From a virus (taxonomy: Duplodnaviria > Caudoviricetes), in IMG/VR virus record IMGVR_UViG_3300029288_000072, positions 64,001-128,000 of that record: a DNA stretch of 64,000 bases; one strand, given 5' to 3'. This document shows, piece after piece, positions 2,048 to 19,625 of this stretch (position 1 is its first letter; each line of letters starts with the position of its first letter). Both the position numbers and the translations under genes were made by a program. The notes below the pieces were generated by a model. It was not told where the DNA came from and did not search any database. It worked only from the letters and a program-made list of their open reading frames with translations.

Positions 2048-2056
2048 TTGTTCCCC

Positions 2057-2641: not shown

Positions 2642-2643
2642 GC

Positions 2644-2671
2644 TTGACTTTTGTTTCTTAGTAGGTATAAT
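2644..2671 (+). promoter_or_regulatory. sigma70-like early promoter TTGACT-N16-TATAAT
   Basis: Near-consensus boxes followed by AGGAG RBS of the 2690 gene. Confidence 0.75.
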
Positions 2672-2689
2672 TACTAATTAGGAGAATTT

Positions 2690-3454
2690 ATGCGATTTAG
2701 TCATTCAAAACTTGAAATAGCACGCAAATGCATGAAGCAATTTCACTACAAATATATATTAAAATATCCAGTATTAGATACAGAACCAACCGAGTTTGGA
2801 AACTTAATTCATGAAATAGCACAAAATTATAAAGGTTCTGGAAAAAAGGAATTGATGTGCTTATATGAAAAATATAGACCTAAATATAAATTTGAGTCTA
2901 AAACATATAAAAATAAAATTAAACTTGCATTAAAAAATATACATGACTTCTGGCAAATAAATTTAAAAAATCAAAAATACGAACCAGAACAGGAAGTAAC
3001 AGAAAGTTTAACCGAATCTATATCATTAAATGGAAAAATAGATGTAATCATATTTAATGATAATAAAGTCAGAATTATAGATTATAAAACAAGTAAGACA
3101 GACAAGTATTCAGATCATACAAACCAATTGGCAATGTATAAAATACTTGTAAATAAAAAATACAATATACCATATGAAAATATGAGTTGTGAAATTGTGT
3201 ATCTTTCTATGGATGAAGTAGATAAATCCGGAAAACATATATTAAATGAAGGATATAATAATATTGTTAGGGAATATGATGTTGATGAATCTGATATTGA
3301 TGTATTAATAGAAGAAATTGAATCAGTTAAACATAGAATAGAAAGAGCAGAAAAAAATAATATTTGGAGAGCAAATCCTACGTGGTTTAATTGTACATAT
3401 TGTTCATTTAATGAACATTGTGATGAAAAATATAAAGATAAAAAAGACTCTTGA
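2690..3454 (+). CDS. PD-(D/E)XK Cas4/RecB-like exonuclease
   Basis: S-x-S...C, GNLIH, GKID, IIDYKTS, QLAMY, C-terminal CTYCSFNEHC (Fe-S type). Confidence 0.9.
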   Translation: MRFSHSKLEIARKCMKQFHYKYILKYPVLDTEPTEFGNLIHEIAQNYKGSGKKELMCLYEKYRPKYKFESKTYKNKIKLALKNIHDFWQINLKNQKYEPEQEVTESLTESISLNGKIDVIIFNDNKVRIIDYKTSKTDKYSDHTNQLAMYKILVNKKYNIPYENMSCEIVYLSMDEVDKSGKHILNEGYNNIVREYDVDESDIDVLIEEIESVKHRIERAEKNNIWRANPTWFNCTYCSFNEHCDEKYKDKKDS

Positions 3455-3478
3455 CTTTTAAATATTCCCATATATAAT
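3451..3478 (+). promoter_or_regulatory. early promoter TTGACT-N16-TATAAT
   Basis: Boxes lie upstream of the HNH gene. Confidence 0.7.
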
Positions 3479-3507
3479 TCGTAAACATTTTAGAAAAAAG
3501 GATTTAT

Positions 3508-4110
3508 ATGCGTACTATACTTCTTGATGCAACTTATGAACCTCTTGGAATAATTTCCTGGAAAAATGCCTGGAAAAAAGTCTTAGACATTAAAGATCCA
3601 AATGGAAAATCTCTATTTGATCCAAAAGCTAATGTTTTGTGGTCATATCCAGAAAAAAAGATTAGATCCGAACATAATTGTTGGGATTGGCCAGCTATAA
3701 TCATTTTAAATAAGCCTTCTCGTAGAAAAAGAAATCATAAAATGATTAATCCGAGTAAACGATCAATTCTTGTTCGTGACATGTATACATGCCAATATTG
3801 TGGGAAAAAATTGTCTAATACCTCTGGTACTAGAGACCACGTTTTTCCTGAATCTAGAGGCGGAAAAACTACCTGGGATAACATGGTTGCTGCATGTAAA
3901 ACTTGTCAGCATAAAAAAGGAAACAAAACCTGCGACGAAGTTAATATGTATCCACTACGTATGCCACAAGAACCAAACCTTATAGAAAGATTTAGAAACT
4001 CTATTAGGATCGCAAGCGCAGTAGAACGTAGAACATGGATCACTGGTCTTAAAAAACTAGGTTTGGATTATATTCTAAACGAAGAAATTAAAGAAGAGGT
4101 ATTGTCATGA
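3508..4110 (+). CDS. HNH endonuclease (McrA/HNH_5-like)
   Basis: RDMYTCQYCG...TRDHVFPESRGG...WDNMVAACKTC; N-terminal LLDATYEPL typical of this family. Confidence 0.92.
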   Translation: MRTILLDATYEPLGIISWKNAWKKVLDIKDPNGKSLFDPKANVLWSYPEKKIRSEHNCWDWPAIIILNKPSRRKRNHKMINPSKRSILVRDMYTCQYCGKKLSNTSGTRDHVFPESRGGKTTWDNMVAACKTCQHKKGNKTCDEVNMYPLRMPQEPNLIERFRNSIRIASAVERRTWITGLKKLGLDYILNEEIKEEVLS

Positions 4111-4871
4111 AAGCATTATTTGCTACTCTTGTTGGAAGTAAATTATACGGTATTTCAACCGAAACAAGCGATACAGATATCAAAGGTATCGCATTAGGAG
4201 AAATATCTCAATTAATTGGACTAGAAAACTTCGAACAGCAAGAGTTTAAAAATGATGTAGAAGACGGACCTTCTAAAATAGAAGGCGTATTATATGCAGT
4301 TGATAAATATTTAAACCTATGTTTTAAAGGAAACCCAACCGTAATTGAAATAGCATTTGCTGATCCAAAATATCATTTATACTCAACTCCAATCGGAGAA
4401 GAGGTTTGTGACTTTGTTCGTAAACATATGTTAACAAAACATTTGTTTAAGCCATATTCTGCCTATCATATGGCCCAAATGCGTAAACTCCAATCACAAG
4501 AAAGAGTTGGAAAACGACAAAAAATTGTTGAAGAACATAATTTTGATCCAAAGTTCGCAGGACATTCGTATCGTCTTGCTAGACAATGTGTTATAGTGAT
4601 GAGAGAAGGAGTTTTGCGTCCAACATTAGATCCAGAAGACAGGGAAATTTGTCTTAAAATAAGACAAGGTAAAAAGTATTTTACCAAAGAATCTGTTTTA
4701 GAATTATTAAAATCTGTCGATACTGAAATGTACGATGCATATAAAACATCTACATTAAAGGAATCTCCTGATTTTAAACTTATTAACAATTTTGTAATAG
4801 ACATACATTTAAGATATATTAAAGGTGAGTTTGATAATCAATTTAAGGTTCCATTTGTTTTCCCAACCTGA
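4107..4871 (+). CDS. pol-beta superfamily nucleotidyltransferase (RlaP/Nuc-transf-like)
   Basis: GSKLYG...SDTDIKG, KGNPTVIE, helical C-terminus FDPKFAGHSYRL. Confidence 0.85.
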   Translation: MKALFATLVGSKLYGISTETSDTDIKGIALGEISQLIGLENFEQQEFKNDVEDGPSKIEGVLYAVDKYLNLCFKGNPTVIEIAFADPKYHLYSTPIGEEVCDFVRKHMLTKHLFKPYSAYHMAQMRKLQSQERVGKRQKIVEEHNFDPKFAGHSYRLARQCVIVMREGVLRPTLDPEDREICLKIRQGKKYFTKESVLELLKSVDTEMYDAYKTSTLKESPDFKLINNFVIDIHLRYIKGEFDNQFKVPFVFPT

Positions 4872-4900
4872 TTTAACAGTTTACGAATTATATATTAAAA

Positions 4901-4938
4901 CCTCTCTTCAATCAATTTTTGAAGAGGGGATTTCTGTT
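4901..4938 (+). terminator. putative intrinsic terminator
   Basis: CCTCTCTTCAA-7nt-TTGAAGAGGGG stem (one GU) then ATTTCTGTT, downstream of the nucleotidyltransferase. Confidence 0.55.
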
Positions 4939-5068
4939 AATAAAATGGAATTAAAATTACTAATTATTAATAAAAATTTAATATTATTAAAGACACATTA
5001 TGGCAATAAATATACAAATGATATTATATGTAAACATAATTTGGAAGATATAGGAATAAAGAAATATA

Positions 5069-5095
5069 TTGACTCTTAAAGTTTTCTGATATAAT
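5069..5095 (+). promoter_or_regulatory. early promoter TTGACT-N15-TATAAT
   Basis: Boxes lie upstream of the 5131 gene; short spacer. Confidence 0.5.
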
Positions 5096-5130
5096 GTCGT
5101 TCTTGATTATTATTTTTAGAAGGAAGAATT

Positions 5131-5787
5131 ATGACAAAGCAACCGATTAAACGACCAAGAGGAAGACCACGAAAATATCCATTAGGAAAACCGCATAAAA
5201 GAAAATATACAAAACGAAAAATAAATAAACAATATATAACACCAGATGAAAATCTGACTAATTTAGAATTGTGGAAACTAGGAAAAAATCAAAAATTTAA
5301 AATTGGTGATGTTGTAGAAAGAAGTACAAATATAGGCGTAATTTATGATATTGGTGATAATTATAAAGAGTATAAAATAAAATGGCATATTGGAAATAAA
5401 TGGGATTATATAGAAGGTTCTGGCGATGAAGATCAACTAAAATTATCTAAAAAGCCAAATCCATTAGTAGTAAATTCATGGGATAGATATCCTGGTCCAT
5501 CATCAAATATGATAAAAAATATAGAAGAAAAACGTAGGAAACAAATTTTAGAACAAGAAAAAAATAAATCTGCAAAAGATGTTGATAAGTTAGTTGAAAG
5601 TATTGAAGAAAGTCATAAAAAATTAAAATATTTAGTGGAAGAAGAAATAGAAGAAGTTGTAGAAGATAAAGCAGAAGATATAGATTGTGTAGTAGATCCT
5701 ACCATAGAAGATGATATTGAAATAATAAATGACCTATCAGTTGAAGAAATGTATAGAAAGATTAAAGAAGAATTGGAGGAAATATAA
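5131..5787 (+). CDS. AT-hook protein with acidic C-terminus
   Basis: KRPRGRPRK motif, basic N-terminus, E/D-rich tail. Confidence 0.7.
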   Translation: MTKQPIKRPRGRPRKYPLGKPHKRKYTKRKINKQYITPDENLTNLELWKLGKNQKFKIGDVVERSTNIGVIYDIGDNYKEYKIKWHIGNKWDYIEGSGDEDQLKLSKKPNPLVVNSWDRYPGPSSNMIKNIEEKRRKQILEQEKNKSAKDVDKLVESIEESHKKLKYLVEEEIEEVVEDKAEDIDCVVDPTIEDDIEIINDLSVEEMYRKIKEELEEI

Positions 5788-6419
5788 TGTTCTTAACAAT
5801 ATTAATCTGTATATTTGTTTGTTATGGAATAACAAATATAATAGTAAATGGAACAATATTTGAAGACATAAAAAAATATTTAATAACAAAATCATCACTA
5901 TTAAAAGATTCATTAACATTTAAATGGGAAGAACAAGGTTGTCCATCGGAAAAATATTTTTTAAACTCCAAAAAAGCAAAAAATATAATTAAAAAATTAG
6001 AAGATATTAAAAAGTCAATAATGTTAGAAACCGATTCACAAAAGGAAAATTCTTTTAATGCTCTATTTCAAATTCATAGAGAATCTTTAGTATTATTATT
6101 TAATAGCGAAGAAAATCTAAAACGTCATATCTCCTTTATTTATAATAAGTTATATAAATTGTCAACATGTATGATGTGTTCTGGGTTTTGGGTTGGATTA
6201 TTTTTAGTAATTTTAACTAGTATAATAAATATAAATCTATTTGGAATGACAATTATATTAATTGGAAATTGTGGTGTAATCTCTTGGTGTATATCAGCAT
6301 TTTTATTATCATGTTTATTTAGTGGAACATCATGGTTTTTAGGTGTACTTTCAACATATTTTGGTAATGGGGAGACGCCCTCTGCTGTAATACATAATTA
6401 TGACCATCAGGATTTATAA
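5787..6419 (+). CDS. membrane protein (DUF1360-like, CxxC-GFW motif)
   Basis: YGITNIIV N-terminal TM, CMMCSGFWVG, further TM helices. Confidence 0.65.
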   Translation: MFLTILICIFVCYGITNIIVNGTIFEDIKKYLITKSSLLKDSLTFKWEEQGCPSEKYFLNSKKAKNIIKKLEDIKKSIMLETDSQKENSFNALFQIHRESLVLLFNSEENLKRHISFIYNKLYKLSTCMMCSGFWVGLFLVILTSIININLFGMTIILIGNCGVISWCISAFLLSCLFSGTSWFLGVLSTYFGNGETPSAVIHNYDHQDL

Positions 6420-7534
6420 TGGCTATTAGTTTTAACAATACATCTAAAGGAACTAATACTCAATTAAGTGAGTGTCTGAAGGATTTATTGTTTGCTTCTG
6501 GAGGGTCTGGTAAATTAGTAGAAATAATAAATAGCATAAATACAGCAGATTTAGAAGGGTTAGGGTTATCTAATATTACCAGAGGAACAGATTTTATTGC
6601 ATCAAATTTACAAAAATTTCAGGATGGTTTACCATTAAGCGATGTATTACCATCAAGCCAATTGCGTCCACCAATCAATATTACAAAAACTGCAACCGAT
6701 ATCGTAGCAGATCTACAAAATAGATGTACAGATTTTTTTCTTGCTGCATTAGATAGAATAAGTCCGATAGATAGACTTGAGCAATTATTAGATTTAGTAA
6801 ATGATTTGTGTGGACAATTGAATTTTTCATCTTTAAGAAAAGTAATTGATAAAATAGAACAAACTCAACGTGATATTATAAGAGAATCTTTAGACAAATT
6901 GACAACTCCATTACAAAAAGCAGCGCAATTAAATGATATGTTAGTTGATGCTATTAATAGTGGTTCACAAGATGCAATTAACAGAATAAATGATGCTATA
7001 GATGAATTAAAATATAACCAACTTTATGATTATGTTAATTCATTAGATCCATTAGAAGCAATAGGAAGATTACAAGCAGAAATAAAAAAACGTACACAGT
7101 TAGGTAACATTCAAGGTATTCAAGAATTGATGGGTGCAATAAATTCTATAGAAGCAACTATAAAATCATCATTAGATAATATAACATCTCCTATACAAGA
7201 TATATTTGATACTCCAGAAAATATTTTAAATGCTGCACAAAATAAAATAGATGATGCATTAAATCTTGGTAATTATGAGGAGATACAAAATATTATTACT
7301 GCATTCGATAATGTTCAAAATGAAGTTCTTTCTACATTACAAAATTTAGATCCTAAAACAATGTTACAAAAAGGATTAACATTATTAAATGATGCATTAA
7401 AAGAAGCAAATATTGCAAAATATAATACTATATTAGATGAAATGGCTAGAAAACTGTGTTCTGAATCACAATTAGGTACTATTCCAGAATTGCCCAACAT
7501 TCCAAATATTCAATTACCATGGATATTAACTTGA
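6419..7534 (+). CDS. helical repeat protein
   Basis: About five degenerate ~47-50 aa repeats (L-x-x-L-D/T-P...A/T-x-x-x-G-N). Confidence 0.7.
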   Translation: MAISFNNTSKGTNTQLSECLKDLLFASGGSGKLVEIINSINTADLEGLGLSNITRGTDFIASNLQKFQDGLPLSDVLPSSQLRPPINITKTATDIVADLQNRCTDFFLAALDRISPIDRLEQLLDLVNDLCGQLNFSSLRKVIDKIEQTQRDIIRESLDKLTTPLQKAAQLNDMLVDAINSGSQDAINRINDAIDELKYNQLYDYVNSLDPLEAIGRLQAEIKKRTQLGNIQGIQELMGAINSIEATIKSSLDNITSPIQDIFDTPENILNAAQNKIDDALNLGNYEEIQNIITAFDNVQNEVLSTLQNLDPKTMLQKGLTLLNDALKEANIAKYNTILDEMARKLCSESQLGTIPELPNIPNIQLPWILT

Positions 7535-7935
7535 TAATACAACATGATGTTTATACATTACGACTTAAACGGTATATTCAAACCGTTTTAAGAAAAGCTA
7601 TTAAAAATAATAATCCATATAAAAAATATATAAAACAATTAATTAAATTAGATATTGTTTTGAAAATGAATTCTAGATTAGCAGAAACTTGGGCATATTG
7701 TACATATGAAGAAAATAAAAGAAAATTTAATGGATTCGAAGTTAACTTTAATTTAGAACTATTTTATGGAATTTCTTCTACTAAATTTAGAAGAGAAATA
7801 ATAACACATGAATTGGCACATTGTATTGATGTGTTAATACGTGGGGATTCATTCCATGATACTGAATGGAGAAATATTCATATTTCATTGGGTGGAACAG
7901 GGGGAACATTTGCCGACCGAAAAGATTTTTCTTGA
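7519..7935 (+). CDS. SprT-like zinc metalloprotease
   Basis: ITHELAH...HDTEW...LGG. Confidence 0.85.
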   Translation: MDINLIIQHDVYTLRLKRYIQTVLRKAIKNNNPYKKYIKQLIKLDIVLKMNSRLAETWAYCTYEENKRKFNGFEVNFNLELFYGISSTKFRREIITHELAHCIDVLIRGDSFHDTEWRNIHISLGGTGGTFADRKDFS

Positions 7936-7965
7936 TTTTTATAATACCTTGATATAATTTCACAT

Positions 7966-8736
7966 ATGAAAATACTTTTAATTGGCGATGTACATGGAAG
8001 ATTTCAAAGATTTGGTAATCATATTTTGAATACCATTAATAGAGGTATTGAATTTGATGCTATAATTCAATGTGGAGATTTTGGAATATATACTGGAGCA
8101 AAAGAAGAATTAAGAAAATTAATGTTTAAAATAAAATTAAATAAATTAATTTATTTTATAGATGGCAATCACGAAGATCATTATACATTATACTTAGTTA
8201 AAAATAAATTAGATAAAATGGGTGTAATTTATCAACAACGAGGAACTATTTTAAAATTAAAAGATGGAACAAAAGTAGGATTTATGGGTGGAGCGTTCAA
8301 TGTAGATCGTCCTCAACAAAACTATTTAAATGGTACTTATAATTTTCCTCATAAATCACAAATAGAAAATTTTTCTAATCTTCTTAAAAAAGAAGGTGGT
8401 GTAGATTTAATGATTACTCATTCATGTCCTTCCAATATTGGTATAGGAATAAAAGGACATCAAGAATTTTTTGAAAGTGGACAAGTATTTATAGGAAAAT
8501 TGGGATTTCCTGTTTCTCCTGTACATGATATAGGCGATTCGTTTTTAACGGATTTGTGGAATCAAATAGAAGGATTTAGACCTAAACATTGGGTATTTGC
8601 TCATGTACATAAACATCATCTATCAAAAGTAGACAATACTGAATTTTGTTCTGTTGGTTGTTGTGATGGAACTGATGAATTACCACAACCAAAAATTTAT
8701 ATATACGATACAGAAACTAAAGAAATATTAATTTAA
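7966..8736 (+). CDS. calcineurin-like metallophosphoesterase
   Basis: GDVHG, CGDFG, DGNHED, ITHSCP, AHVH motifs. Confidence 0.92.
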   Translation: MKILLIGDVHGRFQRFGNHILNTINRGIEFDAIIQCGDFGIYTGAKEELRKLMFKIKLNKLIYFIDGNHEDHYTLYLVKNKLDKMGVIYQQRGTILKLKDGTKVGFMGGAFNVDRPQQNYLNGTYNFPHKSQIENFSNLLKKEGGVDLMITHSCPSNIGIGIKGHQEFFESGQVFIGKLGFPVSPVHDIGDSFLTDLWNQIEGFRPKHWVFAHVHKHHLSKVDNTEFCSVGCCDGTDELPQPKIYIYDTETKEILI

Positions 8737-8752
8737 AAAGGTATAATAGTTT

Positions 8753-9097
8753 ATGAAAAAAATAATAAAACAATATTCCACCGATATATTATGGGCGTTA
8801 TTAGTAACTCTTTTTGAATTATCATGTTTAACAGTATGTTTATTCTTAATTGTTAATTATATTCCGCATGAAATATCTTGGTTGCCAACATCATTTTTAT
8901 CATGGTTTGTTCTGTTGGCAATTTATAGAGTTATAACATATAAATTATCAAATAATAATATTTCACAACCAGATATTCCATCTGGATATAATTCTACTCC
9001 ATATAAGGATAGTACAGATCAACCAATACCTGTTAGAAATGTAATACCAATAGAAGAAGCAGATGAACTTGACAGAGAACATTCCGTCAGAGAATGA
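8753..9097 (+). CDS. two-TM membrane protein
   Basis: Two hydrophobic segments. Confidence 0.65.
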   Translation: MKKIIKQYSTDILWALLVTLFELSCLTVCLFLIVNYIPHEISWLPTSFLSWFVLLAIYRVITYKLSNNNISQPDIPSGYNSTPYKDSTDQPIPVRNVIPIEEADELDREHSVRE

Positions 9098-9521
9098 ATT
9101 CCCTTGGCAATTAAACCAAGGAGAATTAGATGCTAGAACTGGACCTTCAATAGAAGAAGGGCCAGAATTAAAAAACTCTCCCCAATGGTTTAGGTATAAT
9201 AACCAGATGGGAGGAGAAACGGAACAAGAAAAATCTGAAAAACAAATATGTATACAAAAACAACTTGATATGGGTATATTACGCAAAAAAGTTGCACCAA
9301 ATATACAATCTCCAATAGAAGAAGATGTGAAAAAGAAATTTGTTAATTTTACAAATTTATTAAAACAAGATCCTAAATCATTAATACCAGACGTTAAAGA
9401 TACTTTTAAACCGATGGTTGTTGATAAAAATGGAAACAAAAGAAAATTGGGTCCGAATGACAAATGTCCATGTGGATCAGGTAAAAAGTTTAAAAAATGT
9501 CATGGGATAGGGAAGTTTTAA
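9063..9521 (+). CDS. SEC-C metal-binding motif protein
   Basis: C-terminal KLGPNDKCPCGSGKKFKKCHG. Confidence 0.88.
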   Translation: MNLTENIPSENEFPWQLNQGELDARTGPSIEEGPELKNSPQWFRYNNQMGGETEQEKSEKQICIQKQLDMGILRKKVAPNIQSPIEEDVKKKFVNFTNLLKQDPKSLIPDVKDTFKPMVVDKNGNKRKLGPNDKCPCGSGKKFKKCHGIGKF

Positions 9522-9603: not shown

Positions 9604-10194
9604 ATGAAATATTTTATCATATTTCTACTATTGAATTCAGGAATAGTAGTATCAGAGGAACCAAAAAAAGAGGAAATTAAACTTCCATTATCTGTAGAAA
9701 AGGCAGATGCCACATTAATAAAAGAATTAGAAGCAGCAACATCTGCATATAACAAATCCGTTGAAGAATCAATGAAAAAATACAATGCTGTTATTAAAAA
9801 AGAAAAAGATAAATTGAAATTATTAACAGATGCTCCTATAGTGGAAGAATTAGATAAAAAATTGGCAGGAGCAGAAGCATTACTTGCTGCTGCTAGGGAA
9901 ATGCAAGCTATTAAATTAGAAGTTCCTACATCTACAAATGCTCAACCACAACCAAAATTTAATATAATTGGACTTACTTTGATTTTTAAAGGAAAAGGAG
10001 AAATAACATTTGAGAAAGAAGAATTTTCTATGACATGGGATAGAGTTCATAAAAGAAAATGGACTAGCGAAGTTGTAAATAATCAGATAAATATAATTCT
10101 AAAATGGGAAAGAGGCGATGAACGATTAGTATATAATCCCACAACGAATACATTTACAACAGAGTTGTGGGGAGAAGCAACAATTAAGAAATGA
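9604..10194 (+). CDS. exported/periplasmic hypothetical protein
   Basis: Signal-peptide-like N-terminus, coiled coil, small beta domain. Confidence 0.7.
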   Translation: MKYFIIFLLLNSGIVVSEEPKKEEIKLPLSVEKADATLIKELEAATSAYNKSVEESMKKYNAVIKKEKDKLKLLTDAPIVEELDKKLAGAEALLAAAREMQAIKLEVPTSTNAQPQPKFNIIGLTLIFKGKGEITFEKEEFSMTWDRVHKRKWTSEVVNNQINIILKWERGDERLVYNPTTNTFTTELWGEATIKK

Positions 10195-10861
10195 TTTTAT
10201 AATCTAATATCATGTCATTATAGTTTTTAAATATATAATGCATACCATAGCAATTAGATTTAAACTCCTTAATTTGTGATATTATAGTTTTATCTATTAA
10301 GTTATATGAATTACAATATTTTAGATCAACCATTTCTTGTAAGCATGGTTGATCTAAAAGTTTTGGTTGTGATGATATACGATTTTCAATTTTTTGCGAC
10401 CAATCAATATAGAAATCTTTAAACTTATTAGGGTTAAAATATATGAAACCAGAACAAACCTTATTTCTTTTTAATTTTCTAATTTTATATCCTTCGTGTG
10501 ATATATGAATAAAAGAATCTGATAGTGTATCTAAATAATCATTTATGTTTTTAAAATATAATATATCAGAGTCAGAATATATAATTCTATCAAAGTTGTA
10601 AATATCAACTATATTTGGTAGTTGGCTTTTTAACCATTTACAAATATTATGAATTCCATATTCATAATATTTTTGTGGTATTATATTTTCCGCATTAATA
10701 TAAACAACTTCTGTTCTATTAATTTTATTTTCTATTTCCGTTGGTGAAACTATATATATTTTAATATTTTTATTATAAAATCTTAAATAACTTTCTATAC
10801 TAATATTCGTAATATTTGATATATTATTAGATGATATTGTATAATATAAAGTAGTCATCAA
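10184..10861 (-). CDS. GT-A glycosyltransferase (GT8/nucleotide-diphospho-sugar transferase-like)
   Basis: IIYSDSDIL (DxD), CSGFIYF, LDQPCLQ, MHY. Confidence 0.8.
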   Translation of the reverse strand: MMTTLYYTISSNNISNITNISIESYLRFYNKNIKIYIVSPTEIENKINRTEVVYINAENIIPQKYYEYGIHNICKWLKSQLPNIVDIYNFDRIIYSDSDILYFKNINDYLDTLSDSFIHISHEGYKIRKLKRNKVCSGFIYFNPNKFKDFYIDWSQKIENRISSQPKLLDQPCLQEMVDLKYCNSYNLIDKTIISQIKEFKSNCYGMHYIFKNYNDMILDYKIIS

Positions 10862-11460
10862 TAATCAACATCACTTTTTAAATTATATTGTGCGGTTAAT
10901 GTTACATTTGTTCTATAACTTAATATTTTAAAATCATGAATAGATCTATCTATAATTGTATTTTGTGTTTTTATAAAATTCATATAGTCAGTATTTATTA
11001 ATAGATCTTTATTTATTGAATAAAAATGTGATCCATATTTTTTTGTATGATTTATTAATTTAAGAGATGGTATATCTGTTATGAATTTTTTATTTTTCTT
11101 TCTAAAATATGGTTTCTCATTATGAAAACTTACTATATACCAATCAATATTTTTTATAATATTTATGTATTCCATAAAAATATTTTTAAAATTTGGATGA
11201 AAAATACAATCATCTTCTGCAATTAAACTATATTGTGAATTTTCTTTTAATATAGTTTCATAACATAGCAAATGACTTTGCTTACACCCATTTGCACCAC
11301 TCTTTCTAATCTTTTTATTTCTAGTATCTATTGCTTCTATTCTAACAATATCATTTTCATGAAAATTAAATGACATCAATGTATCATGTAATATATTAAA
11401 TTTTTCTATTCTATCATGTAAATTTATAATATAAATTTTATTAAAATATCCACATATCAT
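10858..11460 (-). CDS. glycosyltransferase family 25
   Basis: IYIINL...R, RIEAID, GCKQSH, LIAEDDC. Confidence 0.88.
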   Translation of the reverse strand: MICGYFNKIYIINLHDRIEKFNILHDTLMSFNFHENDIVRIEAIDTRNKKIRKSGANGCKQSHLLCYETILKENSQYSLIAEDDCIFHPNFKNIFMEYINIIKNIDWYIVSFHNEKPYFRKKNKKFITDIPSLKLINHTKKYGSHFYSINKDLLINTDYMNFIKTQNTIIDRSIHDFKILSYRTNVTLTAQYNLKSDVDY

Positions 11461-12683
11461 AAAGTTATATTATCCTTTTTATTATATAATAAACACAATC
11501 CTTTTTCTGTATTATATATATGACATTTTATATCTGGATTGTCGTTCATTATTTTTTGTATACTCTCTTTTTCTCCTGACCTATGGCAATCGTGTATAAT
11601 TACAATTTTTGAAGAAGATATTGCATAGTGTAATGTATTATATCTTGATAAATGTTTTGTTCCTTTTGGTGAATCTACTAATGATAAATCATACATTTTA
11701 TCAGTTATGATATTTAATCCAGGAACATCATAAAATATGGTACTATCTATATTATATATTTTTTTATAATAATCCATATATTTTTGTACATATTCATATG
11801 AATCAATATTACATTTCATATTTTTGAAAAATACTGTCGATGTTCCAGGACCAAATTCTAACACAGATTTTATATTGTTATTATTAATGATTTTTTGTAA
11901 AATTTCAAATTCTATTTTTGTTAAACTACATTTTTGTATAGGTGGTATTATAGATTCTTCTATAGAAATATTTTTTGAATATTTTTCATATAGAATTAAA
12001 AACTCGTTACAGTAATCAAAAGATTTTAAAAAAGAAAACACATCAGGTATATTCAGTTTTTGATGTAATACTTTCGGAGTTTCTTTCAATGTTTTTAATG
12101 TTTTTCTCCAATTTCCACACATATTAAATCTATATGGAAAATCTTTATTATTGACTATATTAATATTTGTATGATTATCTATAACATACCGACCAAAAAC
12201 AAACATAAATCCATTGCGTTTGTCTCTATTTTTATATTTTTCATAAAAATTTTCAATAATCGGTATCATATTTATGGAGAAAAAACTACTTTGATCTGAT
12301 ATTTTTCTTTTATGTAATTTTCCAGCACACACAAAATCATATTGTCCTAATATAGACTCATATTCAAATTTTTCTATTTCATAACAGTCATGATCTTTCA
12401 AATATACAGAATCTTTATATGATTCTAAAATATATTTAACGCCTAGATATTTCGCCATACAACTTCCTATAAACCCTTTAAATATTTCTTCATTATTAAT
12501 ACATTTTATTCCCATATATTCATGATCAAAATTTGTAATTATTTTAATGTCATCTTTATTCCAACCAATTCTTAATGAATTTTCTATTTGTAGATTTATA
12601 TATGGAATTACATTTTCAATAGATAATGCTCTTTTCCATGAATTTTCTTTTGAATCTACTGTATATACAATGACGTTTTTCAA
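11457..12683 (-). CDS. putative glycosyltransferase-like domain fused to class I SAM methyltransferase
   Basis: N-terminal LKDHDC (DxD); C-terminal VLEFGPGTST, LVDSP, IIHDC. Confidence 0.7.
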   Translation of the reverse strand: MKNVIVYTVDSKENSWKRALSIENVIPYINLQIENSLRIGWNKDDIKIITNFDHEYMGIKCINNEEIFKGFIGSCMAKYLGVKYILESYKDSVYLKDHDCYEIEKFEYESILGQYDFVCAGKLHKRKISDQSSFFSINMIPIIENFYEKYKNRDKRNGFMFVFGRYVIDNHTNINIVNNKDFPYRFNMCGNWRKTLKTLKETPKVLHQKLNIPDVFSFLKSFDYCNEFLILYEKYSKNISIEESIIPPIQKCSLTKIEFEILQKIINNNNIKSVLEFGPGTSTVFFKNMKCNIDSYEYVQKYMDYYKKIYNIDSTIFYDVPGLNIITDKMYDLSLVDSPKGTKHLSRYNTLHYAISSSKIVIIHDCHRSGEKESIQKIMNDNPDIKCHIYNTEKGLCLLYNKKDNITL

Positions 12684-13399
12684 ATTGGAGTTCCTATATA
12701 TTCATATGATATATTTAAATTTTTTAATATTATTTCCGATTCATTTTTATATTTGTAGAATGATCCCCATGGTTTTGATGATATATGTTTATGCAATCTT
12801 TTATCATATTGATGACCAAATTTTTCTTTTGTTATTTCTTTATTTAATCCATCGCACCCAATAAATTTAATATGTGATATTCCAGTAAAAAAACAAAAAA
12901 GTAATGCTGTTTTTATTGTTCCTATATGAGTTGGCAACCAATTTCTTTCCGCCATTATGTATCTTGATATATCTGTAAATTTTATATTACACGTTTCATA
13001 TTTATATGGATATCCACAAAGTTCAGGGGAATCTTTCATCAATCCTTTATTCCTATTATATAATACACAATAATCTTTTATTTTTATACCATTTTTATCT
13101 ATAAAATCTGGATAATATTTTGATTCTTTCTTTGATTCCCATGACGGAAGAATACATGTATAAAACTTATTATTTTCTACTACATTTTTTGTCGCAATAT
13201 CATGCGCAAACATAAAATTATTATCTTTATCTTCTAATAAATATTCTTTACATAATAATGCACTTTCATTAATAAACAATTTAACAGAGTTTATATTTTT
13301 TAATTCAGAATAATCAAATAGTGTTGGACCTTTACCGACTATCAAACATTCTTGGTGTTTAAAAACATTAATATATGGAGATATAGTTAGTGAAGTCAT
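12680..13399 (-). CDS. Maf/DUF115 (MptE-like) sugar transferase-like protein
   Basis: CLIVGKGPT...INES...GISHIKFIGCD. Confidence 0.7.
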   Translation of the reverse strand: MTSLTISPYINVFKHQECLIVGKGPTLFDYSELKNINSVKLFINESALLCKEYLLEDKDNNFMFAHDIATKNVVENNKFYTCILPSWESKKESKYYPDFIDKNGIKIKDYCVLYNRNKGLMKDSPELCGYPYKYETCNIKFTDISRYIMAERNWLPTHIGTIKTALLFCFFTGISHIKFIGCDGLNKEITKEKFGHQYDKRLHKHISSKPWGSFYKYKNESEIILKNLNISYEYIGTPI

Positions 13400-14367
13400 T
13401 TTTTATCATCTATTTTTCTATCATATAATCCGGCGGTTTTTTCTGTAATTATATCTGGTATGTATTGTGTTGATTCTGTTATACAATCAATGAATGATTT
13501 ATATGGAAATGCTTTTAATTTAGATTCTTTATTACAATTATAAATATTAAAATTATTTTTTTCAAATATTGGTTGTAATTCAGCAAATCTTGATTTTAAT
13601 GCATCATATGTCTGCTTATTACTATTAATTGAATTTCCTGTTCTATCTTGATCAAAATGATATTTCTTATTTTCTGACATGTCTAAATCACATCCTAATA
13701 AATATACTTTTCTGAACCCCAATTGATATAATATTCTAATTGCTGCTAGCATAACAGATCTTTTACCACCAAGATCTTTATGACATCCCCAATTTACAGT
13801 ATCTTCCCATAGAAATTGATCTGCATTGAAATGGTTATTTCTTCTATAATATATTACATTAGGACATATACTTGGTGTAATATCACTAACTTCCCATTTT
13901 TCATTATCAAATATTTTTTTATTCGTATGGCATAATGGTATTATTTTTTGTATTTTGGGGTCTAAAAAAATGCTTTTTATAAATCTTTGAGGATGATCAA
14001 CTGATACCCATAAATTTGATCTAAATGTTTTAATAGAATTATTTACACCCATTGTACAATGTCCTGGATAGTCTAATAATTCTTTTGTAGTATATTCTTT
14101 ATTTCTAAAGAAAAATTTTTGAGCCATTAACTCTCCAAATGATGGTCCACCAAGAATCAAAAAACACGAAAATCCTTTATATAAATCTCCTATCCATAAA
14201 TTATGACCATCTTGTGTAAAAAATATTGGTGATGGTTGTAAAAACTGATTAATTGGATATCCAAATGTATTATCTCTTGCATGACGCAATTGTGCCCAAT
14301 CTTGTTTGTCTGTCTTTTCACTTTTTGGAAAAGAGTCTTTACTTCTTGTTAAAAATTTAAATTCCAT
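13396..14367 (-). CDS. Maf/DUF115 (MptE-like) sugar transferase-like protein
   Basis: FLILGGPS, MGVNNS, WVSVD, LGFRKVYLLGCDL, IYNCNKES; ATG at 14367 is coupled (TAATG) to the upstream stop. Confidence 0.75.
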   Translation of the reverse strand: MEFKFLTRSKDSFPKSEKTDKQDWAQLRHARDNTFGYPINQFLQPSPIFFTQDGHNLWIGDLYKGFSCFLILGGPSFGELMAQKFFFRNKEYTTKELLDYPGHCTMGVNNSIKTFRSNLWVSVDHPQRFIKSIFLDPKIQKIIPLCHTNKKIFDNEKWEVSDITPSICPNVIYYRRNNHFNADQFLWEDTVNWGCHKDLGGKRSVMLAAIRILYQLGFRKVYLLGCDLDMSENKKYHFDQDRTGNSINSNKQTYDALKSRFAELQPIFEKNNFNIYNCNKESKLKAFPYKSFIDCITESTQYIPDIITEKTAGLYDRKIDDKK

Positions 14368-15212
14368 TATATTATAGCACCTTCTATATTTAACCAATCT
14401 TTATATTCACGTATTTCTATATTAATTTTATTTACACATTGTAATAAATCAACATTTACATTTATATCTTTTGCATATTGCACAATCGCATTTAAATCTT
14501 TTACTAAACATTTTCCACCAAACCCATATTCTCCATCCGGCCCAGGAACAGAACTATGGGAATTTCCTATTCGTTCATTATCGAATTCAACACACCGTAT
14601 TATATGTTCCCAACTATCAGAAGTTTTTGATAATTTTACAATATTATACATCTGATTCATAAAAATAACTTTTGTAGCCAAAAAACAATTTGTTATATAT
14701 TTTACAAGACTTGCTCCAACCAAATCACAAATTCCTATTTTATAATTATTATTACAGTTGCTATATTTTTTAAATAAATCTACTATTTCTAAACAATCTT
14801 CTAACTTTCCTCCAATGATCAATGACTTCATATTAATCATATCGTGAAGATAGTTTTTTTCTGTTAAAAATTCTGGACACATAACTAGACGAAATTTATA
14901 TTTCTGATGATATTCTTGTAATTTATCTGGTGTTACAGTAGACTTTATACAGATTATAGGATTAACCTGTTTATTAATATAATTATTTAATTTTAATAAT
15001 ATAGAATCTAATATTTCTGTATTAATTTTACCAGTATTTAAATCCATTGGCGTCGGAACACATAAAAATATAATTCTACTATTCGTGACTAAATAGTTTA
15101 TATCTGTACTATTTGTATATTTTGGATCATTTAAATAAATTTCAATATTATTTTTGAATGCATGTTCTACTGCTTTCCCTACAATACCGTACCCAATTAT
15201 ACCAATTCCCAT
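14367..15212 (-). CDS. ugd: UDP-glucose/GDP-mannose 6-dehydrogenase (lacks C-terminal domain)
   Basis: GIIGYGIVG, CVPTP, IKSTV, CPEFL, KYITN, FGGKCLVKD. Confidence 0.9.
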   Translation of the reverse strand: MGIGIIGYGIVGKAVEHAFKNNIEIYLNDPKYTNSTDINYLVTNSRIIFLCVPTPMDLNTGKINTEILDSILLKLNNYINKQVNPIICIKSTVTPDKLQEYHQKYKFRLVMCPEFLTEKNYLHDMINMKSLIIGGKLEDCLEIVDLFKKYSNCNNNYKIGICDLVGASLVKYITNCFLATKVIFMNQMYNIVKLSKTSDSWEHIIRCVEFDNERIGNSHSSVPGPDGEYGFGGKCLVKDLNAIVQYAKDINVNVDLLQCVNKINIEIREYKDWLNIEGAII

Positions 15213-15228
15213 GAATATCCTTTTTAAT

Positions 15229-15579
15229 TTAATAAAACAGAATTAACCATTTATCTTCTTTCTGTATAACATTTAAACCATTATAAATCCAATTTTCTTC
15301 TTTTACAACATTTAATAAATTTTTATATATTTCAGCAGATGGTTCTATTTCAATAACATCACCAATAACATTTTTTCCCATTTCATTATTAATAAAAGAA
15401 ATAAATTTGTCAAATTTATCATTATGCAATCTTTTTAATTTACTTATTTCAAATAAAATATTAGATTTTGCATTCGAAACCATTTTAATAAATTTAAAAT
15501 CATTAATATTGTCTTCTGAAATTTTATCTGGATATTTTAATATAAAATTTACTATAGTTTCAAATTCTTTATTTTCCAT
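15229..15579 (-). CDS. hypothetical protein
   Basis: 116-aa ORF, AGGAG RBS. Confidence 0.7.
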   Translation of the reverse strand: MENKEFETIVNFILKYPDKISEDNINDFKFIKMVSNAKSNILFEISKLKRLHNDKFDKFISFINNEMGKNVIGDVIEIEPSAEIYKNLLNVVKEENWIYNGLNVIQKEDKWLILFY

Positions 15580-15625
15580 GAAATTCTCCTGGTTATTATT
15601 TTATCATAATAAAAAAATTTTTAAT

Positions 15626-17575
15626 TTAGCAAGGAATAGATGATAAATTAATTGTCAAATCTATTTCTTGATTCCATTTTTCTAAACTATAAAATGGATT
15701 TGTACTTGGTGTACATTGTTCACTTCCAAATCCAGAATCAACTATTACACCAAAATCATAAAATGCTCTTATTCTAACTATATTTTCACAACATCCATTA
15801 ATATAAAAATATTGACCACTAAACATATAAAATTGATCTGGATATACCGTTGTAAAATATTCTTCTCCCCCCCCATTATCTACATATATATCTAATGCAG
15901 TAACATACAATGCATTGCCTACGAATCCTGTTCCTCCCATTTCATTATCATAATCGGATGAATCAAATACTAAATTTGTTGCAGTTATTGAACCACATGC
16001 ACCAATATTATTACATCCAGAACAAGTTGCTGTTGCTTTTATACTTGAAGAATCTAGATAAACATAAAATCCGGGATATAATGCTCCACTCGTACAATCA
16101 ACTTCACTTGGAATAGTAACAATATGACCGCTAATACTTGTATTAGATGTAGTTAAATTTAATGTTATTGATTGGGAAGTTGATAAATCCCAATCTTCAT
16201 GGCTAGTTCCTGGATTTTCTGGATCATCATATATAGTTGAACACTGATTATAATAATTTAAATATGTACATGGACTATCTCCAGAACAATTACATGCAGT
16301 TACAAATTCTAAGATAGCACTATTCATATAATATTGAATTGTTATATTAGATGCTTGTTCTTCTGGAGTTCCTCCACTTCTGGAAGTATCGCCAAAATAT
16401 TGATCATCTCCACAACCAAGAGGAATAGGACCATATGTTTCTCCTGGGTTAATTTGTAATCCTTCTGTAAATCCCAAATCACTTGTATATATAAATGCAC
16501 ATTCGGCGCTTGTACAAAAAGATGTTGCGTCTATATATAAAGAGGCATCTAATGAAACCTCAAAATATTTATTATTAACTGTTGTACATTCTACACTTGC
16601 AAGATTATCTATTGTAACATTGCTTAATGTTTGTACATCTGCGCATAAACAATCTACAGAAGATGAACTAGATGAGGAACTATCAGAATAGGAAGAACTA
16701 TCAGAAAATGAACTTGAAGATGAACTTGAAGATGAACTATCTGATGAGGATGAAGAACTAGAAGAAGATGAACTATCTGATGAGGATGAAGAACTAGAGG
16801 AAGAACTTTCCGGACAATCGCAGCAAAAACAATATGTATGTCCTTGTAATTTTGCTGCCTGAACAGGCAATTCTTCAAAATGTTTTATAGAAAACCATTG
16901 TCCAGCACCAACTCTTGTAGAACAATCACCAGCAACACCTTCACAATTACCAGCATCGCAATCGCAAGATGAATCTGCTACCTTTGATGTTAAGAATGTT
17001 ATTCCAAAATTATTACAAACATATTCATTATAACAATTTGAACCAGTTGGTTCTAACAAATCATCTCCATTGTTGTAGCATGTATCAGAAACACCAATAT
17101 TTACTACTATATTATCTGCAATTTCCTTAATTGCGTCTCGTATTCTATTTATTGTTATAGCTTTTATTGCTGCACCCTGTACTACTTCTGCCTTTGATCT
17201 TAATGAATCATCAATTCCTTCTGTTAATAATAGTCTTGCAGCATTTATATGAGCACATGTTTCACTTGGAGTACATGTATATTCTTTTGTTGCTTGTGGA
17301 ACATATGAACCAGTTTGTCCTGTATAATTTACTGTCTGCTCTACATCATCATATGTTTGTGTTTCTTCATTATATAAAGAACATGGATACACTATTGTAG
17401 TATTACCTGTATATGTTCCTCCTGTCCATGTTGCATAATTCCATTCACAATCTGTATCATATGATAATGCCTGTTCAGGACAATTTATTGCTATTTCTGC
17501 CTGAATCAATGCGAATATATCAGCAACTTGTTGTATATATGCCTGAATAGTCGTGGCGTCGCAATTACAAGTCAT
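15626..17575 (-). CDS. Cys-rich, acidic, poly-Ser virion/fibre-associated protein
   Basis: Many Cys, ~50-residue Ser tract, coupled to the collagen fibre gene. Confidence 0.7.
   Translation of the reverse strand: MTCNCDATTIQAYIQQVADIFALIQAEIAINCPEQALSYDTDCEWNYATWTGGTYTGNTTIVYPCSLYNEETQTYDDVEQTVNYTGQTGSYVPQATKEYTCTPSETCAHINAARLLLTEGIDDSLRSKAEVVQGAAIKAITINRIRDAIKEIADNIVVNIGVSDTCYNNGDDLLEPTGSNCYNEYVCNNFGITFLTSKVADSSCDCDAGNCEGVAGDCSTRVGAGQWFSIKHFEELPVQAAKLQGHTYCFCCDCPESSSSSSSSSSDSSSSSSSSSSSDSSSSSSSSSSFSDSSSYSDSSSSSSSSVDCLCADVQTLSNVTIDNLASVECTTVNNKYFEVSLDASLYIDATSFCTSAECAFIYTSDLGFTEGLQINPGETYGPIPLGCGDDQYFGDTSRSGGTPEEQASNITIQYYMNSAILEFVTACNCSGDSPCTYLNYYNQCSTIYDDPENPGTSHEDWDLSTSQSITLNLTTSNTSISGHIVTIPSEVDCTSGALYPGFYVYLDSSSIKATATCSGCNNIGACGSITATNLVFDSSDYDNEMGGTGFVGNALYVTALDIYVDNGGGEEYFTTVYPDQFYMFSGQYFYINGCCENIVRIRAFYDFGVIVDSGFGSEQCTPSTNPFYSLEKWNQEIDLTINLSSIPC
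16658..16808 (-). repeat. poly-Ser low-complexity tract with 36-bp tandem duplication
   Basis: GAAGATGAACTATCTGATGAGGATGAAGAACTAGA at 16728 and 16764. Confidence 0.9.
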
Positions 17576-17587
17576 AGAAATCCTTTA

Positions 17588-19582
17588 TCAAGTATATGTA
17601 CAGCAAACATTTCCGCGAGTAACAGTTATTTCTATTGCACCATCACCATTACACGTTGATGTTATGCCAGTCAATGCACAACCAGTTCCTTCTGTTTCTA
17701 TTGTAATTAAATCTTCCAGATTTTTCTTTTGGTATTTAAGTATATCACCACATGCACCTGCATCTTTAGATAAATCAACAATTACATTGAAACATCCACC
17801 ACCAGATGAAGCAACTTCTTCTTCAATATCTGTTATTAATGGTGGTATTTTTTTTGCACGGGCTTCATATTGACAGGTTTCTGCATTCTTAGTTAATGTC
17901 TCTATTACAAAATCACCAGGACATAAATTTTCATTTTCTGGAATATAAAGAATAGTAGGAAATGTTAGTGTATGTTTTGTAACATCAAATCTACATACTG
18001 CATTATTATATTCTATTGTTGAAATAACATCACCAAAACATTGCTCTCCACCGTCAATAATATTTATTGTTGGGGCTGCAACATCGGCATATAATGAATG
18101 TAATGCACCAATACTAATAGTAGATGTTGTTGGAGTTATGGATATTCCAATTTCGCCTTCTACTTTTACTCTATTAACCCCTCCTGCAATACAACCATGG
18201 ATTCCAACTTGATTTACGATAGGAATACCACTTAATGATCTGAAAGACAATATTAATCCTGGACATGACGGAGTAACTACATCTGTACTTTTTTCTGCTA
18301 TTATTGCGGATCCACCACCAGTATTTACATTTGATGATGAATCATTTCCATTTATATTTGCTGTTAAATATGTTGTTGTATAATTTAATACTGCACATCC
18401 ATCAACACCAGTAATTTTGGATAAACTATTTACCGATAATAAATCATAAGAAGTTGGTTCTGTACATTCAATTTCAATGTCTACCAATCCGGTATTTACT
18501 AATGTATCACCATCTCTAATTTCTAATCCACATCCATAGTATAATGGATCATTACAATCTAAACATATACCATCTCTACCATTTTCTCCGTCTTCCCCGG
18601 CAGGACCACGCGGACCAGTTGGGCCTTGTATACCTTGTATACCTTGTTGTCCCTGTGGCCCTTGTATACCTTGCGGTCCTGTGCTACCAGTAGGGCCAGC
18701 AGGACCAGGAGATCCAGCAGGACCAGGAGGACCAGCAGGACCAGGAATTGCACCGGCTGGATCACATACTAATGATGCAACATGCATTGTACCATCCGTT
18801 AATGTTGCTACTAAAATATATCCCGCACTAGATACAAATCCTGATACTTGATATGTTGTTGTATCAATCTGTGTTATTGTTAAATCCCCGCACGATGCAG
18901 TAACATCAGGAACTACACAATCACAGTCTGTTAAATTAACTTCAATACCGTATGTAGATGAACAATCAAGAGAACTTATTTCAGTATCACAATTTCCTGA
19001 CAATTGTACTGTTATTACACTACATTCGGCACAATCGAATGAAATAGTTGGAGTCAAATTGTCTGCAAAATATCCTATTAAATTGCCTTCGCAAAATGCA
19101 CCAACATACTGATGACATGTTCTTTCTACTGGTTGAAATAAAAATCCATATTTTTGTTTTTTACCAACTATTACCTTACAAGATCCCTCTGTAGTAGGAG
19201 GAACGTGTGTTAGTCCTCCAGGAATTATATCGCTTAAATATAATAATTGACCAAAATTGCCAGGAATTTTTGTAGGATCTGGTGAATCATCTTGTACTTT
19301 TCCATTTATGTCTAACGTGAAAAAATCTTTGGTTAATGGAAAGCGATACATCATCGGTGCATCACTTTGTTTTAGATAGAAATAATTATCTCCTTGAAAT
19401 TCCCATACTATACCAGAAATAACAGACTTATTTTCACATGCTAATGCTGGTTTATAATCTCCATCAGTATCTTGGTATACTATTTGACCAATTTCTAATG
19501 TATTTTTTGCATTTATCTGATAAATCAATACTGGATCTGTGTGAAAGTGCCCTGTTGTCTTATCTCTTCTTGATATTGACAT
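17588..19582 (-). CDS. Cys-rich collagen-repeat tail fibre-like protein
   Basis: About 19 Gly-X-Y triplets; N-terminal YLSD..PGGLT..PP motif common in phage fibres; many Cys. Confidence 0.8.
18569..18742 (-). repeat. collagen (Gly-X-Y)n repeat
   Basis: [27 protein letters not shown]...GRDG. Confidence 0.95.
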
Positions 19583-19613: not shown

Positions 19614-19625
19614 TATTTATAAATA
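19614..19625. promoter_or_regulatory. bidirectional T4-type late promoter (TATTTATAAATA palindrome)
   Basis: TATAAATA on both strands between divergent genes 19582(-) and 19674(+). Confidence 0.7.

Follow-up and report, generated by a model that had tools for sequence, protein, structure and literature searches.

A collagen-stalked phage fibre module with a putative, exchangeable glycosylation cassette for its own poly-serine tract

Introduction

Serine-rich repeat adhesins of Gram-positive bacteria, such as Fap1, GspB, PsrP and the SRRPs (proteins with serine-rich repeats), contain long Ser-rich tracts. These tracts are heavily O-glycosylated in the cytoplasm by a dedicated set of glycosyltransferases (GTs) encoded by adjoining genes, including GT8-type extenders. 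The SRRP glycosylation islands vary among strains. Mimivirus and its relatives encode a sugar toolkit beside the genes of their surface fibres. Among phages, the closest established case is virion glycosylation in mycobacteriophages, in which experiments have shown the C-termini of subunits of the capsid and the tail tube to bear glycans (Freeman et al., 2023, cited in PMC12619734 and PMC11256854). Here we analyzed a 64,000-nt stretch of tailed phage DNA, the window, which covers bases 64001-128000 of the 198,442-bp IMG/VR virus record IMGVR_UViG_3300029288_000072 (about 84% complete, guanine-cytosine (GC) content about 27%). Among the genes of the window are very large structural genes and one for a baseplate hub of the T4 type. 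At 10184-19582 on its minus strand, nine tightly packed open reading frames (ORFs) encode a collagen protein, a poly-Ser protein, a small protein and six enzymes. We propose that they form a fibre module with its own swappable glycosylation cassette, which acts on the poly-Ser tract of the phage itself. Judging from sequence comparisons, we put the probability of this reading at about 0.55. The features of the module, in the direction of transcription, are as follows.

19614-19621, minus strand: TATAAATA, motif resembling a late promoter of the T4 type, located 32 nt upstream of the ORF9 ATG
17588-19582, minus strand: ORF9, collagen protein, 664 residues (Pfam Collagen PF01391, 1.5e-9)
15626-17575, minus strand: ORF8, poly-Ser, Cys-rich protein, 649 residues, 36 Cys
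16728-16804, minus strand: 36-nt tandem repeat encoding the poly-Ser tract (TRF, 2.1 copies, 97% match)
15229-15579, minus strand: ORF7, 116 residues, AGGAG ribosome-binding site, no family match in Pfam or PHROGs
14367-15212, minus strand: ORF6, Ugd (UDP-glucose 6-dehydrogenase)-like protein, 281 residues (Pfam PF03721, 2.2e-17; PF00984, 1.7e-15)
13396-14397, minus strand: ORF5, Maf/MptE/CstII-fold transferase-like protein, 333 residues from a TTG start, 323 from the ATG at 14367
12680-13399, minus strand: ORF4, divergent DUF115/MptE-fold protein, 239 residues (Atlas structure, template-modelling (TM) score 0.60-0.70)
11457-12683, minus strand: ORF3, possible fusion of a GT8-like and a methyltransferase-like domain, 408 residues (lead-level Atlas evidence)
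10858-11460, minus strand: ORF2, GT25-family glycosyltransferase, 200 residues (Pfam PF01755, 1.6e-10)
10184-10861, minus strand: ORF1, GT-A nucleotide-diphospho-sugar transferase with a DSD motif, 224-225 residues (PF03407, 7.7e-7)

Each of the known systems resembles this locus in part. Like the locus studied here, mycobacteriophages have phage-encoded glycosyltransferases that adjoin structural genes and are thought to modify proteins of their own particles. Unlike in mycobacteriophages, a separate protein associated with the fibre would provide the acceptor here, in the form of its poly-Ser tract, the enzymes are of the Maf-fold, GT8-like/methyltransferase and GT25 types, and the system is predicted from genes. 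In the Maf flagellin O-glycosyltransferases, represented by Magnetospirillum magneticum Maf (5mu5), the central MptE-like domain has the fold predicted for ORF5, and ORF4 resembles the DUF115/Maf clusters. The proposed acceptor is also similar, Ser/Thr hydroxyls of a surface filament protein. However, ORF5 has about 323 residues compared to about 630 in Maf, and does not contain the Maf N- and C-terminal domains. The locus also contains no flagellin gene and no genes for nonulosonate synthesis or CMP activation, and the acceptor would be a homopolymeric Ser tract on a phage protein.

The SRRP islands differ from this viral locus in more than their bacterial context. The phage has no accessory Sec export, and its Ser tract is short and nearly homopolymeric. 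The GtfA/GtfB (GT4) priming pair is also absent, with no Glycos_transf_1 (GT1) match in its genome. The cassette of one relative (L068/G001) does carry a Glycos_transf_1 match. For the giant viruses, a lead from the Atlas indicates that fusions of GT8 and Methyltransf_24 domains like that in ORF3 are common in Nucleocytoviricota clusters. Unlike giant viruses, this is a tailed bacterial phage with a much smaller cassette, and no homology to their fibre proteins was found. Head fibres provide a further comparison. Known examples are phi29 gp8.5, which consists of a beta-tulip base and a trimeric spike, and SPP1 gp12, which binds the capsid and is collagen-like (PMC7602432). The N-terminal domain of ORF9 matches beta-tulip decoration proteins, including the gp8.5 base, with middling Z scores, and a trimeric collagen stalk would fit a 3-fold site on the capsid. 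No head fibre among the examples in that review combines a beta-tulip base with both a collagen stalk and a large distal domain rich in Cys, and capsid binding by ORF9 is a prediction. In the literature searched, no paper described a pairing of DUF115/Maf-fold genes with Ser/Thr tracts in phages, and phage virion glycosylation was experimentally established for mycobacteriophages only.

A conserved fibre pair followed by exchanged sugar cassettes

The phage has no close relative among those in GenBank. There, the region gave no match by megablast, nor did ORF5 and ORF8 by tblastn. Single-protein scans of IMG/VR with ORF5, the N-terminal part of ORF9 and the C-terminal part of ORF8 gave no match either. 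Relatives with full-length ORF9 homologues (39-54% identity) share the fibre genes. In at least six of them, the collagen gene is followed by an adjoining ORF8 homologue, and the order is large structural genes, a ClpP cassette on the opposite strand, the collagen gene and the ORF8 homologue. In five relatives, the N-terminal domain of ORF8 has 37-43% identity, and its last residues form a conserved YC(F/W)CC motif. Poly-Ser begins right after this motif in every ORF8 homologue, with differing repeat units (S10D, S7D, VSSS and S8K). Seven contigs end inside this repeat. In L067, L069, L070, L071, L073 and three contigs without DNA, the assembly breaks off in the poly-Ser repeat, 265-350 codons into the ORF8 homologue, indicating that the repeat systematically breaks assemblies. 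The only relative read through it is L068/G001, in which the ORF8 homologue has 1007 residues and three very long poly-Ser tracts.

The flanks of the L068/G001 locus are collinear with the window on both sides, and beyond its cassette lies the equivalent of window 352-9521. Two related phages thus carry different sugar cassettes in one and the same slot. The L068/G001 cassette follows the ORF8 homologue and contains GT9, GT1, GT2/7C, GT8-like, Methyltransf_24, Methyltransf_21 and epimerase/dehydratase genes in addition to unnamed genes. The GT8-like enzyme is the only one shared by the two cassettes, and each has a Methyltransf_24-type methyltransferase. The N-terminal half of ORF3 is 27% identical (E 3e-9) to a separate L068/G001 gene located directly before the Methyltransf_24 gene. 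The C-terminal half of ORF3 was also compared to that Methyltransf_24 gene by BLAST and showed no similarity to it. The far end of the 332-kb relative G002 was considered as the site of its missing cassette and was rejected, as the cassette is not there.

At L068:11938-14961, the ORF8 homologue ends in a Gly_rich_2 domain (PF21722, 5.9e-6) and not in the unique C-terminal domain found in this phage. The distal end of the ORF8 protein is also exchanged between relatives.

Ser/Thr tracts beside ORF5 homologues in unrelated phages

ORF5 belongs to a large, well-conserved phage family, with 263 homologues at 45-76% identity. We collected 56 IMG/VR loci and two from other sources that contain ORF5 homologues, and calculated statistics on 50 loci with strict hidden Markov model anchors. 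A Ser/Thr-tract ORF was defined as having at least 15 Ser or Thr in 20 residues. Such ORFs account for 13 of 167 within 1 kb of the anchor, 4 of 88 at 1-2 kb and 9 of 628 beyond. The enrichment within 2 kb is significant (17/255 compared to 9/628; odds ratio 4.9, P 1e-4), in counts that treat phylogenetically non-independent ORFs as separate and use simple ORF calls. Random anchors in the same loci, of which those near locus ends see fewer neighbours, gave 7.0 ± 2.2 such ORFs with a maximum of 14 in 2000 trials, compared to the 17 observed. By lineage, with a looser anchor set, 10 of 20 have a Ser/Thr-tract ORF within 2 kb and 3 of 20 have one farther off. Examples are found in L021, L033 and L036. 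Searches of Pfam and PHROGs gave no names for these Ser/Thr-tract neighbours, and none of the other Maf-anchored loci contains the N-terminal domain of ORF9 or that of ORF8.

Within 3 kb of the anchors, the commonest matches are Methyltransf_24/21, GT2, cytidylyltransferase, Glyco_transf_7C, sulfotransferase and structural families. A cytidylyltransferase is located near the ORF5 homologue in 2 of 20 other lineages. In a siphophage lineage, the ORF5-family gene follows the tape-measure and tail-tip genes, and in L021 it is located just after the gene of the major head protein.

Two of these loci show unusual proteins. At L021:11542-14671, two adjoining proteins (237 and 713 residues) are largely poly-Ser, with several hundred such residues altogether. 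They follow three transferase-like genes, a few genes past that of the major head protein. At L033:10022-12919, a 965-residue fusion of MptE-like and GT2 domains directly follows a protein that ends in a poly-Thr/Pro-Thr tract. An apparent family of ORF5 paralogues was rejected as a single-linkage artefact, in which true homologues were mixed with companion families, one of them DxD GT-A-like.

Predicted structures of the fibre proteins

ORF9 consists of an N-terminal beta-tulip-like domain (approximately residues 1-160), a collagen segment and a Cys-rich C-terminal part. The collagen segment contains 20 uninterrupted G-X-Y triplets at residues 281-340, is rich in Pro and has no Lys, and its length is sufficient for a triple helix. 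The N-terminal domain, searched as the first 160 residues, is widespread. In its predicted structure (predicted local distance difference test (pLDDT) 88), almost all of the best matches are capsid decoration, cement or triplex chains, with Z scores of 5-7.7. They include BB1, Adjutor, HFTV1, Pam3, XM1, the phi29 gp8.5 base (6qyy), TW1 and the herpes triplex. Foldseek ranked the same families first, weakly (E at least 0.09). The beta-tulip set covers the capsid decoration families matched by this domain, and in SPP1 gp12 there is a precedent for capsid binding by a collagen-like protein (PMC7602432). Based on these structural matches and the precedent, ORF9 is probably a head fibre. A trimeric virion fibre is probable, and the models suggest that its location on the capsid is more likely than one on the tail. 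The collagen segment itself would be a poor glycan acceptor, as it has no Lys and few Ser/Thr.

ORF8 contains the conserved N-terminal domain (residues 1-255), which here ends in Y-C-F-C-C-D, followed by the Ser tract and a C-terminal domain. Residues 257-306 form a 50-residue tract with 44 Ser, which we propose, from its sequence, as the glycan acceptor. As a word-based search with the whole protein is dominated by poly-Ser words, residues 330-649 were used to search for homologues of the C-terminal domain, and they found only the same phage. L062 is a second assembly of this phage, with no mismatches over 21.9 kb and a difference of one 36-nt repeat unit; it was therefore rejected as independent evidence.

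Additional comparisons were made for the two proteins. The possibility that ORF8 and ORF9 are paralogues was rejected when both were compared. In P0173 and P0149, which belong to the family of the ORF9 N-terminal domain, Cys-rich and poly-Ser sequence directly follows the domain. Ser tracts may thus often be part of a decoration-like base of this kind.

Enzymes of the cassette

The model of ORF5 (pLDDT 82.6) matches Maf 5mu5 with a VIA Z score of 13.8 over 205 residues, the MptE kinase HPPK with 10.7 and CstII with 10.2. These matches assign an MptE/Maf/CstII-type fold to the catalytic domain. ORF5 also matches PHROG 4603 (2.8e-9). In the Atlas, the structure neighbours of ORF4 are DUF115, Maf and WaaZ_KDO_III clusters over residues 1-239. 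It has no Pfam match to PF01973 (MptE-like), matches the ORF5 profile at the level of motifs only (GKGP...GCD), and does not match the ORF5 companion family. Pfam finds no Maf_flag10_N or C-terminal Maf domain in ORF5 (323-333 residues) or ORF4 (239 residues); Maf has about 600 residues.

The remaining enzymes are related to sugar transfer, methylation and oxidation. Features and structure neighbours in the Atlas indicate, at the level of a lead, that the N-terminal half of ORF3 (approximately residues 1-239) is GT8-like, and that the C-terminal half (approximately 240-405) is a class I S-adenosylmethionine methyltransferase-like domain of the Methyltransf_24 type with the motif LEFGPGTST. No Pfam match was found for ORF3. 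ORF2 scores 41.6 bits against PF01755, above the 24-bit cut-off, and falls in CAZy family GT25. ORF1 scores 29.7 bits against PF03407 (Nucleotid_trans), above the 22-bit cut-off, and matches GT8 weakly (0.011).

ORF6 contains the NAD-binding N-terminal domain, the central domain and the catalytic GGxCxxKD motif of the sugar dehydrogenase family. It aligns to residues 69-298 of the 450-residue sugar dehydrogenase 3gg2, with GFGGKCLVKD aligned to GYGGSCFPKD. It ends at residue 281, without the C-terminal UDP-binding domain PF03720. The truncation is real, because the next gene, ORF5, overlaps it by 1 nt and has an N-terminus that is conserved in its own family. ORF7 was considered as the detached Ugd C-terminal domain, and this was rejected, as it has neither the expected motif nor any Pfam match. 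A homologue of ORF7 was not found in the L068/G001 cassette.

Compared to the preliminary description of this locus, made from the window alone, the collagen fibre gene and the GT25 gene are supported by their Pfam matches, and other assignments are narrowed. The poly-Ser, Cys-rich protein has its 50-residue tract, in which 44 residues and not all 50 are Ser. The Ugd gene is present but truncated. Of the two Maf/DUF115-like genes, the folds of both agree with that label, and the threshold of PF01973 is not reached. The GT-methyltransferase retains both of its predicted halves on lead-level evidence outside Pfam. The gene called GT8-like is a GT-A enzyme closer to Nucleotid_trans than to GT8.

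Gene layout and transcription signals

The genes are arranged in the order ORF9, ORF8, ORF7, ORF6, ORF5, ORF4, ORF3, ORF2 and ORF1. Spacers of 12, 46 and 16 nt separate ORF9, ORF8, ORF7 and ORF6. All six enzyme genes overlap, with the junctions TAATG, ATGA, TTGA, ATGA and TTGATGA. The GC content is 33-35% in the fibre genes and 18-26% in the enzyme genes.

Of the 43 TATAAATA sites in the genome, 15 are located upstream of a same-strand ORF start at a distance of up to 60 nt (expected 1.5, P 6e-12). For the fraction of sites upstream of ORFs, TATAAATA ranks first among 56 8-mers of the same composition. Over the window as a whole, it is not enriched. Examined in the direction of the collagen gene, it is kept 25-35 nt upstream of the ORF9 homologue in L067, L068, L069, L070 and L073, although the spacers are otherwise unalike. 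Based on its positional enrichment and its conservation in five relatives, we predict that TATAAATA is very likely a genuine promoter element, similar to those of T4 late genes.

One transcript across the nine genes is plausible from this layout. It is not established, because the scan gave a weak terminator-like hairpin, its sole one, within ORF8 (17053-17040) and a candidate sigma70-like promoter just before ORF7 (15632-15603). The preliminary description had correctly placed the nine-gene run with its overlapping enzyme genes and the late-promoter-like motif. It reported no terminator, which applies to the run apart from this hairpin.

The sequence at 19614-19625 is TATTTATAAATA, which contains TATAAATA on both strands. 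It is located between the collagen gene and a divergent Zn-ribbon/dNMP kinase/ClpP cassette. The latter cassette and its orientation are kept in all relatives.

Proposed mechanism and alternatives

We propose the following mechanism. ORF9 and ORF8 would be read from the conserved TATAAATA promoter, and would be followed by ORF7 and the six translationally coupled enzymes. ORF9 would provide a beta-tulip-like base, probably binding the capsid, a collagen stalk and a Cys-rich tip, and ORF8 would display the poly-Ser tract. Ser hydroxyls would be primed in the cytoplasm before assembly, by ORF5, ORF4 or the GT8-like half of ORF3. Priming by the Maf-fold enzymes is pointed to by the association across lineages, whereas conservation inside this lineage points to the GT8-like enzyme. 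As the phage record has no CMP-sugar synthetase, the Maf-fold enzymes may use a host-made CMP-activated ulosonic acid. The GT-A enzymes (GT8-like, GT25 and Nucleotid_trans) would lengthen the chain from UDP-sugars, the methyltransferase half of ORF3 would O-methylate the glycan, and the truncated dehydrogenase ORF6 may supply or create uronic acid. The particle would thereby gain a mucin-like brush of glycans that may serve adhesion or shielding. Through exchange of the cassette, the type of glycan would differ between related phages. In this mechanism, the attachment of sugar, its nature, acceptor, timing and role are all inferred.

Several observations weigh against this proposal. The phage is uncultured, and glycosylation is deduced here from genes. 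The match of the ORF9 base to decoration proteins is middling in Z. ORF5 scores 18.3 bits (E 0.002) against Pfam PF01973, below the 34.6-bit cut-off, and ORF6 is missing its UDP-binding domain. A CMP-sugar synthetase (CTP_transf_3) was not found in the 198-kb record, which is about 84% complete. The sigma70-like candidate precedes the enzyme block, and the enrichment carries the limits given with its counts and random anchors. In tblastn searches against 60 loci carrying ORF5 homologues, the other eight proteins of the cluster gave no match; as a whole, the cassette is thus not conserved beyond this phage. The preliminary description had looked to co-occurrence of the sugar cluster with poly-Ser genes across relatives. 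The fibre pair is found in at least six relatives and a sugar cassette in L068/G001, but the enzymes are different, and an ORF5-family gene is absent from the three relatives G001-G003. Whatever happens to the conserved Ser tract thus does not require the Maf-fold enzymes.

Instead of the fibre, the enzymes may act on the lipopolysaccharide (LPS) core, capsule or another surface glycan of the infected host, for instance to exclude superinfection or keep progeny off debris, and the slot beside the fibre genes would merely be variable. LPS-core assembly is the classical setting of the GT25, GT8-like and GT9 families and of the DUF115 fold resembling WaaZ (Kdo III), which also counts against fibre glycosylation, and the content of the cassette varies among relatives as in a moron or variable island. 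Further GT and deoxysugar genes are located elsewhere in the genome beside replication genes, and GT sets of marine phages are usually interpreted as remodelling the host envelope (PMC12801897). However, this explanation does not account for the Ser/Thr-tract ORFs beside ORF5 homologues in 10 of 20 unrelated lineages, for the sugar cassette keeping its slot directly after the conserved poly-Ser gene, or for the placement within head or tail modules in other lineages. We consider it unlikely, though deserving of attention. The same three observations argue against chance adjacency in a recombination-prone slot, in which the poly-Ser tract would be an unmodified flexible linker. Such low-complexity linkers are common in fibres, the length of the Ser tract varies, and the GC content of the enzyme genes is far below that of the fibre genes. 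On the other hand, the enzyme genes are translationally coupled, and the fibre genes, ORF7 and the enzyme block lie only 12-46 nt apart. The absence of any functional link is distinctly unlikely in our judgment.

The remaining alternatives keep the neighbourhood but change the chemistry. ORF5 and ORF4 could phosphorylate or pyrophosphorylate Ser to create a polyanionic tract, with the GTs acting elsewhere. The MptE fold includes pyrophosphokinases, the score of ORF5 to HPPK is close to its sialyltransferase scores, and the phage record has no CMP-sugar synthetase. We regard this as very unlikely, since the best match of ORF5 is the Maf glycosyltransferase and since GT2 fusions occur among its homologues, which have genes for GTs, sugar methyltransferases and, in two lineages, cytidylyltransferases on their flanks. 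Glycosylation of phage DNA bases, a known activity of phage GTs as cited in PMC12619734, has a next to negligible probability here. The enzymes are of the GT-A and Maf-fold types and located among late structural genes. The sole ThyA-family gene scores 353 bits against the Pfam thymidylate synthase model, like an ordinary ThyA, and none of the comparative evidence points to DNA. This agrees with the preliminary description, which had argued that DNA modification was not the function. Its view that the phage glycosylates its own fibres gains from the conserved fibre pair, the cassette in a relative, the enrichment of Ser/Thr tracts and the glycan-enzyme neighbours. It is still an inference, and is better directed at the Ser tract than at the collagen segment. 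An acidic glycan, also suggested there, would be consistent with the Ugd-like domains and is weakly based given the truncation of ORF6; a methylated glycan has the Methyltransf_24-like half of ORF3 as its lead.

Fibre glycosylation may extend beyond this phage. Many tailed phages might have an undescribed post-translational system, in which DUF115/Maf-fold and other soluble transferases would equip the mucin-like poly-Ser/Thr tracts of their capsid or tail fibres with O-linked glycans, often methylated, using exchangeable cassettes that give varied glycan types; the collagen-stalked head fibre system described here would be one case. We offer this generalization tentatively, with odds slightly short of even. 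If poly-Ser tracts are glycan acceptors of Maf-fold enzymes, a large class of hypothetical phage genes would gain a function, and poly-Ser proteins would become predictable glycoproteins. Particles would carry variable glycan coats, relevant to adhesion, environmental stability and recognition by hosts or grazers. As the repeats break short-read assemblies exactly at the fibre gene, such modules are systematically under-assembled.

Neighbouring and distant genes

A 196-residue ORF at 9604-10194 on the plus strand is convergent with the cassette. Its N-terminus resembles a signal peptide and its middle a coiled coil, and it has no counterpart in the syntenic region of the relative G001.

Two groups of sugar genes are located farther away in the genome. 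At L063:4278-6693 (genome 154277-156692), GT10-like, Glyco_transf_7C/GT2 and GT2 genes lie beside the gene of a topoisomerase subunit. At L064:2740-5479 (genome 165739-168478), genes for an RmlC/RmlD-like fusion (437 residues), a SLOG/LOG-like protein and an NDP-sugar 4,6-dehydratase (329 residues) adjoin a gp32-like gene. From the genes at L064, we predict that the phage can probably make a 6-deoxyhexose. An RmlD-type fusion similar to that at L064 also occurs near an ORF5 homologue in L002.

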